DNA of 64,000 nucleotides, from positions 4,845 through 68,844 of the forward strand of contig QMQO01000001.1 of NCBI GenBank assembly GCA_003650545.1, written 5' to 3'. The position numbers and the translations under genes are program-made. Positions 23,272 to 49,720 of this stretch are shown here, piece after piece. Within the stretch, counting starts at the first letter, position 1. Each line of letters opens with the position of its first letter. Below the pieces are notes generated by a model. The model did no database searches. It was given only the letters and a program-made list of their open reading frames with translations, and was not told the DNA's origin. The DNA comes from Candidatus Woesearchaeota archaeon (GTDB lineage Archaea > Nanobdellota > Nanobdellia > Woesearchaeales > B72-G16).

Positions 23272-23964
23272 ATGCATAAGCAGATTAATTATATAAGTCA
23301 AGAGGAGTGGCAGAAGCTAAATAGTGTTATTGTTAATGCCCGTGACAAGCTGATAATTAATACCATATATCATACAGGCTGCACTGTTTCTGAGCTTGTA
23401 AGGATAAAAGTAAAGGATGTTGACTTTGTGAACTCTATGATATACTTTCCTGCAGAAAACACAAAATCAAGGAAAGATAGGTTTTCAAGAATTCCAGTAA
23501 GTCTGGCGTTTAGGCTAAAGAGCTATCTTGAGTTAATAGGGGATGAAAAGAATCAGGATGTATTTGTTTTTGGTAGCAATAAACAAAGTGCAATATCAGA
23601 GAATAGAGTTAGGCAGATTGTAAAGAAGTATGCTGACAAGGCAGGAATTCAGAAAGTGTATGGAGTTGATAGCAAAGGAAGAAAGTTGTATGCTGTTACT
23701 GTTCACACATTAAGACATAGCCACATAAAACACGCAATCGACAAGAATGTTCCCTTACAGGCTATAATGAAGCAAGTAGGTCATAGCAACATAAGGACAA
23801 CAAAGTTCTATTATAATTTGAGTGCAAATGATGTTAAACAAGCTTATGAGCAAGCAGGTTTTGACGATTCTGATGAAGAAGAACTGATGTTTGGATCTGA
23901 CGAGCCAAACATGTCAAATATGCCAAATTCAGGGGATTATGGAGATTATGATGCAGACTCGTAG
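23272..23964 (+). CDS. tyrosine recombinase-like protein (catalytic-domain only, Arg I apparently replaced)
   Basis: HTLRHSHIKHAI (HxxR) and GHSNIRTTKFYY (His and Tyr) match integrase boxes. The box I position reads TGCTVSEL instead of TGLRxSEL. There is no N-terminal core-binding domain, and the C-terminal tail is acidic. Confidence 0.7.
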   Translation: MHKQINYISQEEWQKLNSVIVNARDKLIINTIYHTGCTVSELVRIKVKDVDFVNSMIYFPAENTKSRKDRFSRIPVSLAFRLKSYLELIGDEKNQDVFVFGSNKQSAISENRVRQIVKKYADKAGIQKVYGVDSKGRKLYAVTVHTLRHSHIKHAIDKNVPLQAIMKQVGHSNIRTTKFYYNLSANDVKQAYEQAGFDDSDEEELMFGSDEPNMSNMPNSGDYGDYDADS

Positions 23965-26900
23965 GAAGACTAAAGTTGTAAGAAAAAAGCATAGAATTCT
24001 GCTAATAAAAGGTCTCAATGTTGCGTTGATATTTATATTGTTTATAGTGATGATGCGTTTGATGATTTTTGTTGAGCCAGATATAGGGAATAAAGTTAGA
24101 AATATGTTTTTAGATGTTGATGAAAAAGAATATAAACCGATATTTGACTTAGGTCTAGTTGAGAAACAAACTGATAAGGAATTCGTTGATGTTAAAATAG
24201 AGGTTAAGAATAGAGACACACCAATAAAATCAGTAGAGTTTAAAGGGGCAAAAACTGATACGCTAAAGAATTTTAGAGTTGTCAATGTGGTTGAAGATAG
24301 CAATAATGCGAAGTTTGCTGAAATTTATTCAGTAGATTCTGCAGACGCAGAGTTTGATTCTGCGAAACTGATTGTTGAAGCTAATGGAAAAGATCTGTTT
24401 AAATGTGTTGATTGGGATGGAGAAAAACAAGAGTGCAAAGGAAAGTGGAAGAAGATTAAAGATATTACTCCAGGGGAGAATTATGAATTGACAGTGACAA
24501 AAGGTGATCCTGGCTTTGCAGAGATTGGTTATATCGCTCTGACTGATAAAGACGAATATCTCATTGATGCAGATTTTAAGATTAAAGGTGATGGAAATAA
24601 AGTTGATGTTGAGATAATACCTAAGGATAGTGTTATTAAGAAGATTGTGGTAAATGATTTTGAAAGAGATTCTTTAGATAATGACATGAGAATTGAAAAT
24701 AAAACAAATGAAAATGGTTTTGTGCAAAGTTATTCTATTGATCCAACTATGCTAGCTTTCGGCGATGTAGAAGTGACTGTTGTTGCGAGAGGAACAAAGT
24801 TGATGAAGTGTAAGGATTGGGATTTTGAAATGCAGAAATGTAAAGGGAACTGGGAAATTTGGAAGAATGGCCTTGTACCTGGAGTAGAATATACATTTAC
24901 TTTAACAAAAGAGGATCCTGGCTATGGAGAGATAGTTAATATATCTGATGCAGTACATCTAGATAGTAATTTGAGTTTTATCTCTAATATTTATGATGAA
25001 GTTAAAAGTAAGGATGGTGTATGGTCTGAACCAATCTATGAAAATGAGTATGTTAGAATTGTCTTCGAGGAAAATCTTACAGCTGATGATGACATAATGG
25101 TCTATGTAAGGAATAATCAAAGTCTTAATACTAATATAGAGGTTTATTATTATAATAGTACAGAAAAGATAACTGGTTTTCCTAGAATCATCAATGAGGA
25201 CTATTATAGGGTTTATCTAACAGGCATGACAGGTAGTCATGATACTTTTGACCTTAAGGTTGTTAATACAGACTCTGAGACAGCATATCTGGAGTTTGAC
25301 CATATAATAGATCCTAAATTAACACCTGTTCAGATTTTTTATGAGACCTTTCCTAATGCTGATGGGGCTTGGGATGGTTCTTCAGATACGGCACAGGATG
25401 AACCGGGTTGGGTGACAATTCAGGGTTCAAGTGATTCTAATGATGTCCAGGTGAGCAATGAAGATGTGGCTAGTGGCACTTTGCCGCCGTCAGGAGGAAA
25501 CCATTTAACATTTGAAGATTGTGATGATGGTCAGCTAATACCAAATACACAATATGATCTGGCTTGTGTGCCTATAGACTTAGATGGTTATTCTAATGTA
25601 ACTATAGAAGTTTATGGCCAATCAGATGATGTTGATGCGAATGAGTGGCTGCAGGTTTCATACTCAATAGATGCTGCAAGCTGTACAGATGGATCATGGG
25701 TGCAGTTAGGTTATTATGAAAACCCAACAGACGACACCTGGTATTTGATAACATATAGCATACCTAATGAAAATGCTAGTGCGAATTTTAGGCTGAGGTT
25801 TGCTTCGAAGTCAAACAGAGCAGGAGAGCATTTTTATATTGATGATGTAAAAGTAACAGGAAACCCAATTCCAGTTGTTGCAGATCCAAAAACTTATAAT
25901 TTATCATTGATAGGAAAAACAATATTTGAGGTTGGCGACACTATAGTCACTAGAGTTAATGTGACTGACGCAAGCGGCTCAGATGATATTGAAGCTGTTT
26001 TGATAACCATAACAAGTCCGAATTCAACAGATGTGGTTGTTAATGCCTCAATGACAAATGTTTCTTCTATTACTAATGGTTATGTCTATGAATATAATTA
26101 TACTATCCCTTTGGTGTTTTCTGCAATTGGAAATTGGAGTATAGTTATTTATGCAAATGATAGTTATTCTGTTTTGGGGCGAAACTCTACTAAGTTTACA
26201 GCATTCGATACTACAGCTCCAAGCTATGTTAACTTAAGCGAGTCTCCAGCACATCCTGCAACATACGCTCCGGGCCAAAGCTATCAGTTTAATGCAACAT
26301 GGACAGATAATCTAAATATTGATACTGTAATACTGGAATTTGATGGGGTTAATTATACAGTTCTAACTAATGATAGCAATGAATATTACTATTCCTTTAC
26401 AGACTTAGCTGTAGGAACATATAATTATACTTGGTATGCAAATGATACAAGCAATAATTGGAATAGCACAATAATGCAGAATTATACTATAAACCAGGCT
26501 AGCAGTGAAATAAATTTAACTTTAGATGAAAATGATTCTAATATAACAGTTGAAGTTGGTAGTTATGTTAATATTACTGCTACTCTAGTGACACCCATAG
26601 CAGGTTACATTGAATTATACAATAATGGAACTCTAATAAATAGTGGAAACAGTCCATTGAACAATTATACGCTGTTTAGCGCTATTGGAATTTATAATAT
26701 AACTGCTTTTTATCTAGAAACACATAATTATTCATCCGGTTATGAAACACATTATGTCATAGTACGGGATACTACGGCTCCTATAGTAGAGCTAAACAAT
26801 CCAACTAACGGGTATAATACATCTTCTACTTCGATCAACTTTAACTGGACAGTCTTGGACAATGTTGACACTAACTTGTCTTGTAATCTTACACTTGACG

Positions 26901-28573
26901 GTGTGACAAATGCAAGCAATATTGCTTCTTTGAATAATACACCAGTAAATTACTCTGTAAGCACTTTAAATGATGGAACACATTACTGGAATGTGACGTG
27001 CTGGGATAACTCGAATAATACTAATACTAGTGAAACGAGAAGCTTTACTATTGATACTGTTGGACCAATAATAGAGTTAAATGCACCAATTGAAGCTCAT
27101 AATTTTTCTACAAATACCATCAACTTTAATTGGACGGCGACTGATGCAAAACAAAATGAGATTACATGTAATCTGACACTAGATGGAGTTACTAATATAA
27201 GTGGAATAACATCTTTGAATGCGACGCCAACAAATTATACTGTCTCTGGCTTGTTAGATGGTTTGCATTACTGGAATGTAACGTGCTGGGATAAAGTTAA
27301 CAATACTAACACAAGCGCTACAAGAAGTTTTATAGTCGATACAGTGGAACCAAAAATAAATCTTACATCTCCAGTAAATTATTATAATTCATCTTCAAGC
27401 AATGTTTCATTTGAATGGATTGCAACTGATGGTCTTGATTCAGTATTGACATGCGATATAACAATAGACTATTCTGTGAACATGTCAGATGTCCTGTCAA
27501 CAAATAACACGCCAACCTTGGTTATTGTAACGGGATTACAATCTGGAACACATCACTGGAATGTAACATGTGGAGATGATGCGGGAAACTATAATACGAG
27601 CGAAACAAGAATGCTTGTTGTAGACCTTATAAATCCTGTTATAAATGCTGTAAGCGATTCACCAGATCCCTTGAATCAAACATCTTATATCAACATAACT
27701 GCTAATGTGACAGATGATCTTGGTGTTGACACTGTTTTGGTTGATATACTTGGAGTGAATTACACCATGCAACAGGGAACTATAGATATCTATTATTACG
27801 ATGGTTTTAATACAACCCAACTTGGTCTAATAAACTATACAGTCTATGCAAATGATACAGCGGGCAATAACGCAATAGCAGTCAGTAGCAACTTTACTGT
27901 TGTTGATGTAACGCTGCCTGTTATTAATAGTATAAGTGATTCGCCAGATCCGGTTGATCCAGGCACTGTTATAAACATAACTGCTAATGTTACAGATAAT
28001 ACAGGTGTTAGTAAGGTATGGGTTCAGATAAATGGTTTGAATTATACTATGTTAAAAGCTGACTCTGAAACATATTATTATGATGGTTTTGATACTAGCA
28101 GTGTTCCTGCTGGAACACATAACTACTATGTATATGCAAATGATACTTCTGGTAATAATGCAACTCCTATAGTTGGAAGCTTCTCTGTTAACCCTTTAGT
28201 TTCAGTAATGCTTTATAATTATCCTGTTAACTTCACCAGTACAGAGGTCGGCTTTACTGTTAATGCAACAAATGCCAAAGGCTTTCCAATGATTATTGAG
28301 AATGAGGGAAATGTCTATGTGAATGTTTCTATTAAAGGAACCGATATGATTGGGCAGATAAATAATAGCTATACAATACCTGTAAACCAGATTGAATATA
28401 GCTTATACGAGAGCTTTAATGAGAGTAACACTTTAACTACAGGATTTACTTCGATTGTTGATAACATACTATATTTCAGCAATAGGACAGTTTATTTTAG
28501 GATTTCTGTGCCAATAAATAGAATACAGCAAACTTATCAAGGTAATCTGACTATCAGAGCTATACAGAGCTAA
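23948..28573 (+). CDS. giant N-terminally anchored surface glycoprotein/adhesin with Ig-like repeat arrays
   Basis: The start MMQTRRKTKVVRKKHRILLIKGLNVALIFILFIVMM overlaps the recombinase-like gene stop. The protein contains several repeat families and dozens of N-x-S/T sequons in its C-terminal two thirds. Confidence 0.75.
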   Translation: MMQTRRKTKVVRKKHRILLIKGLNVALIFILFIVMMRLMIFVEPDIGNKVRNMFLDVDEKEYKPIFDLGLVEKQTDKEFVDVKIEVKNRDTPIKSVEFKGAKTDTLKNFRVVNVVEDSNNAKFAEIYSVDSADAEFDSAKLIVEANGKDLFKCVDWDGEKQECKGKWKKIKDITPGENYELTVTKGDPGFAEIGYIALTDKDEYLIDADFKIKGDGNKVDVEIIPKDSVIKKIVVNDFERDSLDNDMRIENKTNENGFVQSYSIDPTMLAFGDVEVTVVARGTKLMKCKDWDFEMQKCKGNWEIWKNGLVPGVEYTFTLTKEDPGYGEIVNISDAVHLDSNLSFISNIYDEVKSKDGVWSEPIYENEYVRIVFEENLTADDDIMVYVRNNQSLNTNIEVYYYNSTEKITGFPRIINEDYYRVYLTGMTGSHDTFDLKVVNTDSETAYLEFDHIIDPKLTPVQIFYETFPNADGAWDGSSDTAQDEPGWVTIQGSSDSNDVQVSNEDVASGTLPPSGGNHLTFEDCDDGQLIPNTQYDLACVPIDLDGYSNVTIEVYGQSDDVDANEWLQVSYSIDAASCTDGSWVQLGYYENPTDDTWYLITYSIPNENASANFRLRFASKSNRAGEHFYIDDVKVTGNPIPVVADPKTYNLSLIGKTIFEVGDTIVTRVNVTDASGSDDIEAVLITITSPNSTDVVVNASMTNVSSITNGYVYEYNYTIPLVFSAIGNWSIVIYANDSYSVLGRNSTKFTAFDTTAPSYVNLSESPAHPATYAPGQSYQFNATWTDNLNIDTVILEFDGVNYTVLTNDSNEYYYSFTDLAVGTYNYTWYANDTSNNWNSTIMQNYTINQASSEINLTLDENDSNITVEVGSYVNITATLVTPIAGYIELYNNGTLINSGNSPLNNYTLFSAIGIYNITAFYLETHNYSSGYETHYVIVRDTTAPIVELNNPTNGYNTSSTSINFNWTVLDNVDTNLSCNLTLDGVTNASNIASLNNTPVNYSVSTLNDGTHYWNVTCWDNSNNTNTSETRSFTIDTVGPIIELNAPIEAHNFSTNTINFNWTATDAKQNEITCNLTLDGVTNISGITSLNATPTNYTVSGLLDGLHYWNVTCWDKVNNTNTSATRSFIVDTVEPKINLTSPVNYYNSSSSNVSFEWIATDGLDSVLTCDITIDYSVNMSDVLSTNNTPTLVIVTGLQSGTHHWNVTCGDDAGNYNTSETRMLVVDLINPVINAVSDSPDPLNQTSYINITANVTDDLGVDTVLVDILGVNYTMQQGTIDIYYYDGFNTTQLGLINYTVYANDTAGNNAIAVSSNFTVVDVTLPVINSISDSPDPVDPGTVINITANVTDNTGVSKVWVQINGLNYTMLKADSETYYYDGFDTSSVPAGTHNYYVYANDTSGNNATPIVGSFSVNPLVSVMLYNYPVNFTSTEVGFTVNATNAKGFPMIIENEGNVYVNVSIKGTDMIGQINNSYTIPVNQIEYSLYESFNESNTLTTGFTSIVDNILYFSNRTVYFRISVPINRIQQTYQGNLTIRAIQS
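26768..27622 (+). repeat. three tandem 285-nt (95-aa) coding repeats inside the giant surface protein
   Basis: Units begin DTTAPIVELNNP, DTVGPIIELNAP and DTVEPKINLTSP. Each contains INFNWT...C(N/D)(L/I)T(L/I)D...HYWNVTCWD...NTS(E/A)TR. Confidence 0.85.
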
Positions 28574-28896: not shown

Positions 28897-29068
28897 GGGC
28901 TCGTGGTCTAGCGGCTATCGGAAGACCGTAAATGACAGCGCCCTTACATTGTGAGATTGTTTCAATTGTTTCACACAAGAGAGGCGTTAATCCCCGGTTC
29001 GAGTCGGAGAATCAAAATTAGCTTTATCAATTTCAACTTGCATCTTCGCGAATATCCGGGCGGGCCCA
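28897..29068 (+). tRNA. tRNA-Val (anticodon UAC) with three introns
   Basis: Exons are 28897-28916, 28932-28948, 28982-29003 and 29055-29068. They assemble into a 73-nt cloverleaf: GGGCTCG TG GTCT AGCGGCTA TGAC A GCGCC CTTACAA GGCGT TAATC CCCGG TTCGAGT CCGGG CGGGCCC A. Introns are 15 nt (D-loop), 33 nt (37/38) and 51 nt (T-loop 59/60), each with a BHB-like fold. Confidence 0.85.
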
Positions 29069-29171
29069 TTCCTAGAAAATTTTTTATGTAGTAAAAAAAA
29101 TGGCTTTAGAGTGCTTGAAAATGCAGACTGTCTTACTATCTTGTTTGTCTGCATCTTCTTTGCATCTTTAA

Positions 29172-29295
29172 GCGGCAGTAGTATAGTGGTTAGAGATTCA
29201 TAATCGGCCAATACCCGGCGTTGCCAACGCCGTAACCGGGGTTCAAATATGCCGAAGCAATTTATGCTTCGCGATTGAAAGTCCCCGCTGCCGCA
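29172..29295 (+). tRNA. tRNA-Gly (anticodon GCC) with two non-canonical introns
   Basis: Exons are 29172-29193, 29212-29247 and 29282-29295. They give a 72-nt cloverleaf: GCGGCAG TA GTAT AGTGGTTA GTAC C CGGCG TTGCCAA CGCCG TAAC CGGGG TTCAAAT CCCCG CTGCCGC A. Introns are 18 nt (D-loop) and 34 nt (T-loop 59/60). Confidence 0.85.
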
Positions 29296-49275: not shown

Positions 49276-49434
49276 GCGGGGATGCCGGAGTGGCCAAACG
49301 GGACAGACAATCTGGTCTAAGCTTAGGTCGCTTAACGCGTAGGTAACCTGTTGGCTTAGACAGAAGCATAGCTTTTATTAAAAAGCTGCACTTTTGGAGC
49401 AATGCCTACGGGGGTTCGAATCCTCCTCCCCGCA
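49276..49434 (+). tRNA. tRNA-Leu (anticodon UAG), class II, with three introns and a 7-nt anticodon micro-exon
   Basis: Exons are 49276-49306, 49321-49327, 49346-49359 and 49403-49434. They give an 84-nt molecule: GCGGGGA TG CCG GAGTGGCCAAA CGG G ACAGG CTTAGGA CCTGT TGGCTTAGTGCCTAC GGGGG TTCGAAT CCTCC TCCCCGC A. Introns are 14 nt (30/31), 18 nt (37/38) and 43 nt (variable loop). The acceptor and T arms are unambiguous. The internal exon assignment rests on hand-drawn BHB cores. Confidence 0.7.
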
Positions 49435-49720
49435 CTTCTTTTTATAGAATTTAATAAGGTTTTAATATAGCAAACGCTATACTGACATACTTTTTTAACA
49501 AATAAAACAACTTATTACTTTCAAGTAGTTATGAACTTTTAGGTCTTAATTCCACGAAATTTTGCATAATCAATTTCTAAACAACTAAAATTAATTCCAG
49601 ATTTGCGAAAATTTTATAAAAACAATATTTTTATACGCACGTTAGTGAGCTAGGATGCTCGATGAAACCATATAATGGTTTTGTATGTAAAGATAGCCAA
49701 GATAAACATGCGAAACACTT

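Follow-up and report, generated by a model that had tools for sequence, protein, structure and literature searches.

A probable three-intron tRNA-Leu(UAG) gene with a 7-nt anticodon exon in a Woesearchaeota/Pacearchaeota-like DPANN archaeon

The locus and its mature tRNA

The stretch of DNA analysed here, which we call the window, comprises 64 kb of densely coding archaeal sequence whose genes, identified by Pfam scans, include diphthamide synthase, an S-layer domain protein, eIF-6, prefoldin, aIF2-alpha, and PAC2. Positions 49276-49434 on its forward strand (159 nt) hold a leucine tRNA gene in four exons, interrupted by three inserts of 14, 18, and 43 nt. All coordinates and sequences given for this locus in a first-pass annotation proved correct when we re-read them. 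The exons, and a short run of T downstream, are laid out as follows:

49276-49306, forward strand: exon 1, 31 nt, GCGGGGATGCCGGAGTGGCCAAACGGGACAG; acceptor 5' strand, D arm, position 26, and anticodon-stem positions 27-30
49321-49327, forward strand: exon 2, the micro-exon GCTTAGG, 7 nt; position 31 and anticodon-loop positions 32-37, with the anticodon TAG at 34-36
49346-49359, forward strand: exon 3, 14 nt; position 38, the anticodon-stem 3' strand CCTGT, and the start of the variable arm (T GGC TTAG)
49403-49434, forward strand: exon 4, 32 nt; the end of the variable arm (T GCC TAC), T arm, acceptor 3' strand, and A73
49439-49443, forward strand: T5 run beginning four bases past the discriminator; candidate archaeal transcription stop signal, read from the sequence

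The T arm in exon 4 is GGGGG TTCGAAT CCTCC, followed by the acceptor 3' strand TCCCCGC and the discriminator A73; CCA is absent from the encoded 3' end. The T5 run is likely an archaeal transcription stop signal, and no clear TATA-like promoter was found upstream of the gene. Joined together, the four exons give an 84-nt class II molecule that ARAGORN calls tRNA-Leu(tag). Its acceptor stem has 7 bp and its D stem 3 bp; the anticodon arm reads ACAGG-CTTAGGA-CCTGT and the variable arm GGC-TTAGT-GCC. An exact-protein search turned up only a 5.6-kb Logan contig, which ends ~30 nt inside the gene, and nothing for the upstream ORF. The G+C content of this spliced tRNA is 64%, compared with ~34% for the genome.

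Standard detectors did not recover the gene. ARAGORN at its default settings and Rfam at gathering thresholds returned zero RNA genes across the 64-kb window, and Rfam searched at E values up to 10 matched only an 18-nt T-arm fragment at the tRNA-Leu locus. The same two tools also miss the other tRNA genes of the window, tRNA-Val and tRNA-Gly, which are arranged as follows:

28897-29068, forward strand: tRNA-Val(TAC); unique best three-intron solution under strict cloverleaf enumeration
28917-28931, forward strand: tRNA-Val intron in the D loop, 15 nt
28949-28981, forward strand: tRNA-Val intron at 37/38, 33 nt
29004-29054, forward strand: tRNA-Val intron in the T loop, 51 nt
29172-29295, forward strand: tRNA-Gly(GCC), with two introns, in the D loop and the T loop
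29194-29211, forward strand: tRNA-Gly D-loop intron, 18 nt, the best strict bulge-helix-bulge (BHB) solution, with an ambiguous boundary
29248-29281, forward strand: tRNA-Gly T-loop intron, 34 nt

A T-arm scan, a GC-island scan, and an intron-tolerant acceptor-stem finder revealed no further tRNA-like loci in the window, which thus holds three tRNA genes and eight introns. The first-pass claim that every tRNA in the window is multi-intronic therefore stands, with three introns in tRNA-Val and two in tRNA-Gly. The intron-tolerant finder was exact on the window; in relatives of higher GC content, most of its hits were false. The Val and Gly exons, compared by BLAST with the tRNAs of the fetched loci, gave no useful orthologues.

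Two further features lie near the Val/Gly pair. The motif TGCATCTT(C) occurs three times, at 29039-29047 (inside the tRNA-Val T-loop intron) and at 29150-29158 and 29161-29168 (both just upstream of tRNA-Gly), and may represent a common regulatory or processing element or what is left of a duplication. About 5 kb upstream of the pair, a tyrosine recombinase gene (23272-23964, forward strand; Phage_integrase, E 1.4e-27) directly precedes and overlaps a gene for a 1560-aa Ig-domain surface protein (23891-28573, forward strand), and the two may mark an integrated element.

We placed the tRNA-Leu gene among its relatives by running a degenerate pattern for the acceptor and D arm (the uninterrupted 5' 26 nt) against GTDB genomes. 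More than 120 loci matched, nearly all of them labelled Woesearchaeota, Pacearchaeota, or Nanoarchaeota, and this distribution of lineage labels places the predicted host among the DPANN archaea of that group, as a Woesearchaeota/Pacearchaeota-like member. Many GTDB records with a DPANN-type tRNA-Leu bear the title "uncultured Methanosarcinales archaeon," "Candidatus Woesebacteria bacterium," "Methanobacteriota archaeon," or "bacterium" (L009, L020, L021, L028, L029, L038, L039, L041-L043, L045, L046, L049, L005/L032, and others); these are probably mislabelled or mis-binned DPANN contigs.

The matched loci yielded a sample of 72 intron-free genes (83-85 nt) and 35 interrupted genes. Because the pattern needs the first 26 nt to be free of interruptions, it under-samples genes with D-loop introns, and because gene extraction needed an uninterrupted T arm, the intron counts given below for the family are lower bounds. 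Thirteen loci have a 5' match and no 3' end (L012, L020, L021, L033, L053, L069, L071, L080, L085, L089, L095, L108, and L110); contig ends may have truncated them, or they may have introns in the T arm, as tRNA-Val and tRNA-Gly of the window do.

A splice-aware dynamic-programming alignment to a profile of 59 of the intron-free genes, in which no BHB information was used, yields exactly three introns in the gene of the window, at 30/31 (14 nt), at 37/38 (18 nt), and in the variable (V) loop (43 nt). These are the same boundaries that the first-pass annotation had drawn, at 49307-49320, 49328-49345, and 49360-49402. Excision of all three inserts leaves a canonical tRNA whose cloverleaf is intact and whose conserved residues are in place, as judged by ARAGORN and by comparison with L045, an intron-free Leu(TAG) orthologue with a score of 56.6 bits (E 8e-12) against the Rfam tRNA model. 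The spliced product is identical to L045 at 81 of 84 positions; the three differences are one D-loop base and a compensatory change of an A:T to a G:C pair in the variable stem. The earlier assignment to tRNA-Leu(UAG) is borne out by both the ARAGORN call and this match.

Another exon structure, or another anticodon, has some claim to attention, since ARAGORN run with its intron search proposes a tRNA-Cys(gca) with a single 87-nt intron, and since it accepts 1265 of 51083 BHB-bounded splice combinations of the locus, many of them with nonsense anticodon loops. The acceptor, D, and T arms are fixed, however, so ARAGORN does not discriminate among alternative splicings here. The predicted product matches L045, and no intron-free relative corresponds to any of the alternatives; the acceptor and D arm form a Leu-specific class II signature common to more than 100 tRNA-Leu genes; and a one-base shift of any boundary alters conserved G37, A38, or the V loop, as is evident on reading the letters. 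In essentially every top solution, strict cloverleaf enumeration over BHB-bounded excisions also sets introns 1 and 2; this pruned enumeration leaves the variable arm unscored and so cannot set the boundary of intron 3 alone. We consider a different structure or anticodon hardly credible.

Bulge-helix-bulge geometry and a proposed splicing route

At the boundaries defined by homology, each of the three introns has a central helix with four of four pairs and 3-nt bulges on opposite strands:

49307-49320, forward strand: intron 1, 14 nt, ACAATCTGGTCTAA, Sprinzl position 30/31; inner mini-hairpin CA-ATC-TG
49301-49304 with 49315-49318, forward strand: BHB helix of intron 1, GGAC:GTCT; bulges 49305-49307 (AGA) and 49319-49321 (AAG)
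49328-49345, forward strand: intron 2, 18 nt, TCGCTTAACGCGTAGGTA, canonical position 37/38; inner hairpin CGC-TTAAC-GCG
49322-49325 with 49340-49343, forward strand: BHB helix of intron 2, CTTA:TAGG; bulges 49326-49328 (GGT) and 49344-49346 (TAA)
49360-49402, forward strand: intron 3, 43 nt, in the variable-arm loop TTAG|T; inner helix 49361-49366 with 49391-49396 (CAGAAG:CTTTTG)
49354-49357 with 49397-49400, forward strand: BHB helix of intron 3, GCTT:GAGC; bulges 49358-49360 (AGA) and 49401-49403 (AAT)

The inner helices of introns 1, 2, and 3 measure 2, 3, and 6 bp, and the outer (exon-side) helices 1, 1, and 0 bp. The outer helix of intron 1 is the single pair G49300:C49322. That of intron 2 is the anticodon stem, which is complete only once intron 1 is gone and is reduced to 1 bp in the unspliced form. 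In intron 3, the CAGAAG:CTTTTG helix encloses an internal hairpin of 7-8 bp (49369-49376 with 49381-49388). Introns 1 and 3 are relaxed HBh'-type motifs. All of the helices, bulges, and inner hairpins described in the first-pass annotation are present, both in the sequence and in constrained folds; it had conceded that the outer helix of the 43-nt intron was weak, and we find 0 bp there and only 1 bp at the 14-nt intron.

Relaxed BHB-like candidates are common enough in this DNA (78 in 170 nt) that a single one carries little weight. When the introns were shuffled with the homology-defined boundaries held fixed, a complete central helix at all three sites had a joint probability of ~5e-6, on which we reject chance resemblance; with the observed inner helices included, it falls to ~1e-10. 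Two other kinds of gene were also considered and rejected. A self-splicing group I intron of the bacterial or organellar tRNA-Leu type sits in the anticodon loop and has at least 200 nt with a catalytic core, as opposed to inserts of 14, 18, and 43 nt, and no Rfam intron family matched the locus even at E values up to 10. A split or permuted tRNA gene does not fit four exons that are collinear on one strand within 159 nt.

The unconstrained minimum free energy (MFE) fold of the 159-nt precursor forms none of the three BHBs. The competing helix pairs the palindrome CTAAGCTTAG (49317-49326, containing AAGCTT), which spans the junction between intron 1 and the micro-exon, with the variable-arm segment GGCTTAGA (49353-49360; GGCTTAG), and this helix competes with all three BHBs. 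Measured by constrained folding against the MFE, the BHB of intron 1 costs 2.4 kcal/mol in the full precursor and that of intron 3 costs 1.6 kcal/mol. Forcing the BHB of intron 2 costs 7.8 kcal/mol in the full precursor and 3.6 kcal/mol once intron 1 is removed, and forcing all three together costs 13.8 kcal/mol.

These structures constrain how the precursor could be processed. In the BHB of intron 1, tRNA positions 25-28 are paired with the intron, which rules out a cloverleaf precursor at the time of that cut. The BHBs of introns 1 and 3 have no proper exon-side helix, and an endonuclease that accepts relaxed motifs would thus be needed. Since the anticodon stem that serves as the outer helix of intron 2 forms only without intron 1, the folding model suggests ordered splicing in which introns 1 and 3 leave before the canonical intron 2.

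The route that we infer, from transcription through cleavage and ligation, would have the archaeal splicing endonuclease EndA cut the 159-nt transcript within the 3-nt bulges, and an RtcB-type ligase join the exons into the 84-nt class II tRNA, to which CCA would then be added. Introns 1 and 3 would be removed, the exons ligated, and intron 2 removed last, an order that would keep the 7-nt anticodon exon covalently tethered on one side at each step. It agrees with the sequential removal described for closely spaced archaeal introns, of which one must leave before the next BHB can form (PMC8450103). No EndA or RtcB gene was found by Pfam among 30 scanned ORFs of the window, which has 46 ORFs of at least 150 aa.

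Recurrent insertion sites in the tRNA-Leu family

Introns in the sampled tRNA-Leu family recur at four sites, namely the D loop, 30/31, 37/38, and the V loop, with a maximum of three per gene. A 7-nt micro-exon (GCTTAGG, ACTCAAG, or ACTTAAG) lies between the 30/31 and 37/38 introns in 14 distinct genes, and the exact three-intron layout of the window recurs twice, in L124 (CAA) and L131 (TAG). At 14 nt, intron 1 of the window is the shortest of 17 introns at 30/31, close to the minimum able to hold half a BHB plus a hairpin.

We examined covariation at the two non-canonical sites, the V loop and 30/31. A metagenome scan for TTAG|T insertions in the V loop returned 43 stretches, and from these, L070, and the window, 19 distinct V-loop introns were picked automatically; L131 was added by hand for the alignment, giving about 20. 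Every one of the 19 scored introns has a central helix with four of four pairs and 3+3 bulges, with inner helices of 3-10 bp. In a pseudo-alignment of the V-loop junctions, 96.8% of cells are paired, and six of six inner pairs show double changes; none of 500 shuffles reached the observed value, and shifted registers pair at 30-54%. Introns at 30/31 were placed by profile dynamic programming, regular-expression placement having been discarded after it gave many false junctions. Across 17 distinct genes, 93.5% of cells at this site are paired, with exon positions 27 and 28 covarying with the intron; again none of 500 shuffles reached the observed value, and shifted registers gave 27-52%.

These data bear on two other readings of the locus. 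It could be a decaying pseudogene, once a tRNA-Leu gene, that has taken on insertions and is no longer processed, which would fit the blindness of standard detectors to it and the absence of the BHBs from the precursor MFE. Its exons, however, carry no lesions and match the family consensus at conserved positions, and all three inserts sit at family-recurrent sites with perfect BHB cores, of a kind that the shuffle test indicates random insertions would not produce; the helices at 30/31 and in the V loop covary besides. Small DPANN genomes usually have one gene per anticodon, which we also count against decay. We give the pseudogene a very small chance.

It could also be that only the introns at 30/31 and 37/38 are removed and that the 43-nt insert is kept as an enlarged variable arm. 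The insert does sit in the loop of an arm that naturally varies in length, it folds into a stable stem-loop, and helix covariation by itself would equally fit a retained structural arm. Against retention, the geometry is that of an EndA substrate, a 4-bp helix with exact 3-nt bulges on opposite strands in 20 of 20 distinct V-loop inserts; the BHB helix uses the V-stem bases GCTT instead of the normal GGC:GCC stem; excision restores the V arm GGCTTAGTGCC, which is 96-98% conserved; and the close orthologue L045 has no insert. We therefore judge retention highly improbable.

We put at roughly 0.88 the probability that 49276-49434 functions as a tRNA-Leu(UAG) gene with three protein-spliced BHB introns in a Woesearchaeota/Pacearchaeota-like DPANN archaeon.

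Close relatives differ strikingly in their introns. L045 has exons 96% identical to those of the window and no introns at all; L134 (94%) has introns at 37/38 and in the V loop; and L163 (96%) has them in the D loop, at 37/38, and in the V loop. With orthologues 94-96% identical carrying zero, two, or three differently placed introns, the inserts are dispensable for the mature sequence, and the pattern indicates apparently rapid intron turnover among near-identical tRNA-Leu orthologues. V-loop intron similarity is also decoupled from exon similarity. L070 (GAG) and L141 (CAA) share a V-loop intron at 98% identity with exons at 75%, and L122 and L141 have exons at 99% identity with V-loop introns at 68%; the V-loop intron of the window is 72% and 69% identical to those of its nearest relatives, L133 and L124. 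Such patterns suggest intron transfer or gene conversion among tRNA-Leu genes.

To our knowledge, the current record for tRNA intron density is held by Pyrobaculum calidifontis, with 71 introns in 46 genes. A stronger claim, that a V-loop intron family moves or is copied between DPANN tRNA-Leu genes as the first of its kind in class II tRNAs, and/or that the host exceeds P. calidifontis in intron density, a comparison that rests on the three visible genes of the host genome with their eight introns, is one we advance tentatively and would sooner bet against. Translocatable introns in class II tRNAs were not known to a 2015 review (PMC4390854), and intron transfer, if true, would contradict that published view.

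Two observations on other members of the family deserve mention. On the minus strand of L059 (JAHJEM010000075.1), two tandem Leu(TAG) copies lie ~180 nt apart, at about 364-630 counted from the beginning of the reverse-complemented locus. In the upstream copy, similarity ends past the 5' strand of the T stem, and this copy is either a duplicate that has been truncated or a gene carrying a large insertion in the T arm.

The second concerns long 37/38 introns of tRNA-Leu(CAA), 13 of 19 of which have in common TTGAGTG-NNGA, a hairpin, and RATGA (L013, L037, L041, L044, L055, L062, L087, L094, L122, L140, L141, L142, and L144). The archaeal tRNA-Trp intron acts in cis as a box C/D guide for 2'-O-methylation. 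In tRNA-Leu(CAA), TTGAGT is perfectly complementary to ACTCAA, the anticodon-loop exon, and a CUGA/AUGA box follows it, with C34 at the fifth position upstream, which would be the geometry of such a guide. Rfam gave only sub-threshold archaeal C/D sRNA matches for the L055 intron (sR5, E 0.49). In some long Leu(TAG) introns (e.g., L038 and L039), a similar box would be directed at position 39, and the 18-nt intron 2 of the window has no C/D-guide-like box.

Significance and comparison with known systems

The gene belongs to a type that is already known. Archaeal precedents exist for three introns, for V-arm introns, and for 6-nt exons, and its novelty is therefore modest. The first-pass annotation had called an intron in a class II variable loop and so short an exon rare, which holds for the classic literature and fails within this lineage, where about 20 V-loop introns and 14 micro-exon genes occur; precedents are found elsewhere as well (PMC3293823, PMC3239211). 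Our literature search found no survey describing such DPANN tRNA-Leu architectures. If read correctly, the gene extends maximally interrupted tRNA genes from the Thermoproteales to Woesearchaeota/Pacearchaeota-like DPANN, and its family displays four recurrent insertion sites in one class II tRNA together with apparently rapid intron gain and loss among near-identical orthologues. It would also be a compact natural substrate for asking how an endonuclease handles three overlapping relaxed motifs, and it raises the question of how a 7-nt exon with the whole anticodon is kept in place during splicing.

There is a practical consequence. ARAGORN and Rfam miss all three tRNA genes of the window, so genomes of this lineage will appear to lack tRNAs. 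Incomplete tRNA sets that need manual curation have been noted in DPANN as unexplained (PMC5829648). In the same study, Kaneta et al. tied increased tRNA disruption to the L3-loop alpha4 EndAs of DPANN, among them those of one Pacearchaeota and one Woesearchaeota genome (PMC5829648).

Three introns per tRNA is the documented archaeal maximum, found mainly in the Thermoproteales (PMC4033280, PMC4390854, PMC8450103, PMC3239211), where Pyrobaculum calidifontis pre-tRNA-Glu(UUC) and P. islandicum pre-tRNA-Pro(UGG) are examples (PMC4390854, PMC4033280, PMC8450103). Like these genes, that of the window carries three BHB introns in one tRNA. Unlike these crenarchaeal genes, it belongs to a DPANN archaeon, encodes a class II tRNA, and has one intron in the variable-arm loop. 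The enzyme would differ too: by analogy, the host likely has an alpha4-type EndA with the L3 loop (PMC5829648), in contrast to the (alpha-beta)2 form of the Thermoproteales.

Fujishima et al. in 2010, as cited in later papers (PMC4033280, PMC4090602), reportedly described translocatable tRNA introns of the Thermoproteales, near-identical introns in non-orthologous genes. The V-loop introns of L070 and L141 resemble them in being near-identical in non-orthologous genes, whereas the spread observed in DPANN involves tRNA-Leu isoacceptors only, at a single site.

Within the DPANN, the closest parallel to the micro-exon is ARMAN-2 tRNA-Pro, in which introns at 53/54 and 59/60 leave a 6-nt exon (PMC3239211). 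In both genes, two adjacent introns leave a loop micro-exon (6 nt there, 7 nt here); that of ARMAN-2, however, lies in the T loop and is without the anticodon, its gene has two introns, and its EndA is of the epsilon2 type. Caldiarchaeum subterraneum has a multi-intron tRNA-Leu(UAA), and V-arm introns are reported (PMC3293823), which makes it, by description, a parallel for a multi-intron class II tRNA-Leu and for V-arm introns; unlike the DPANN host of the window, it belongs to the TACK superphylum. Among eukaryotes, nuclear and nucleomorph tRNA genes of Cyanidioschyzon merolae and cryptomonads are multi-intronic (PMC3728597, PMC4090602). They share with the gene of the window up to three ectopic introns per tRNA gene and BHB-like junctions, in eukaryotic genomes rather than in an archaeal one.
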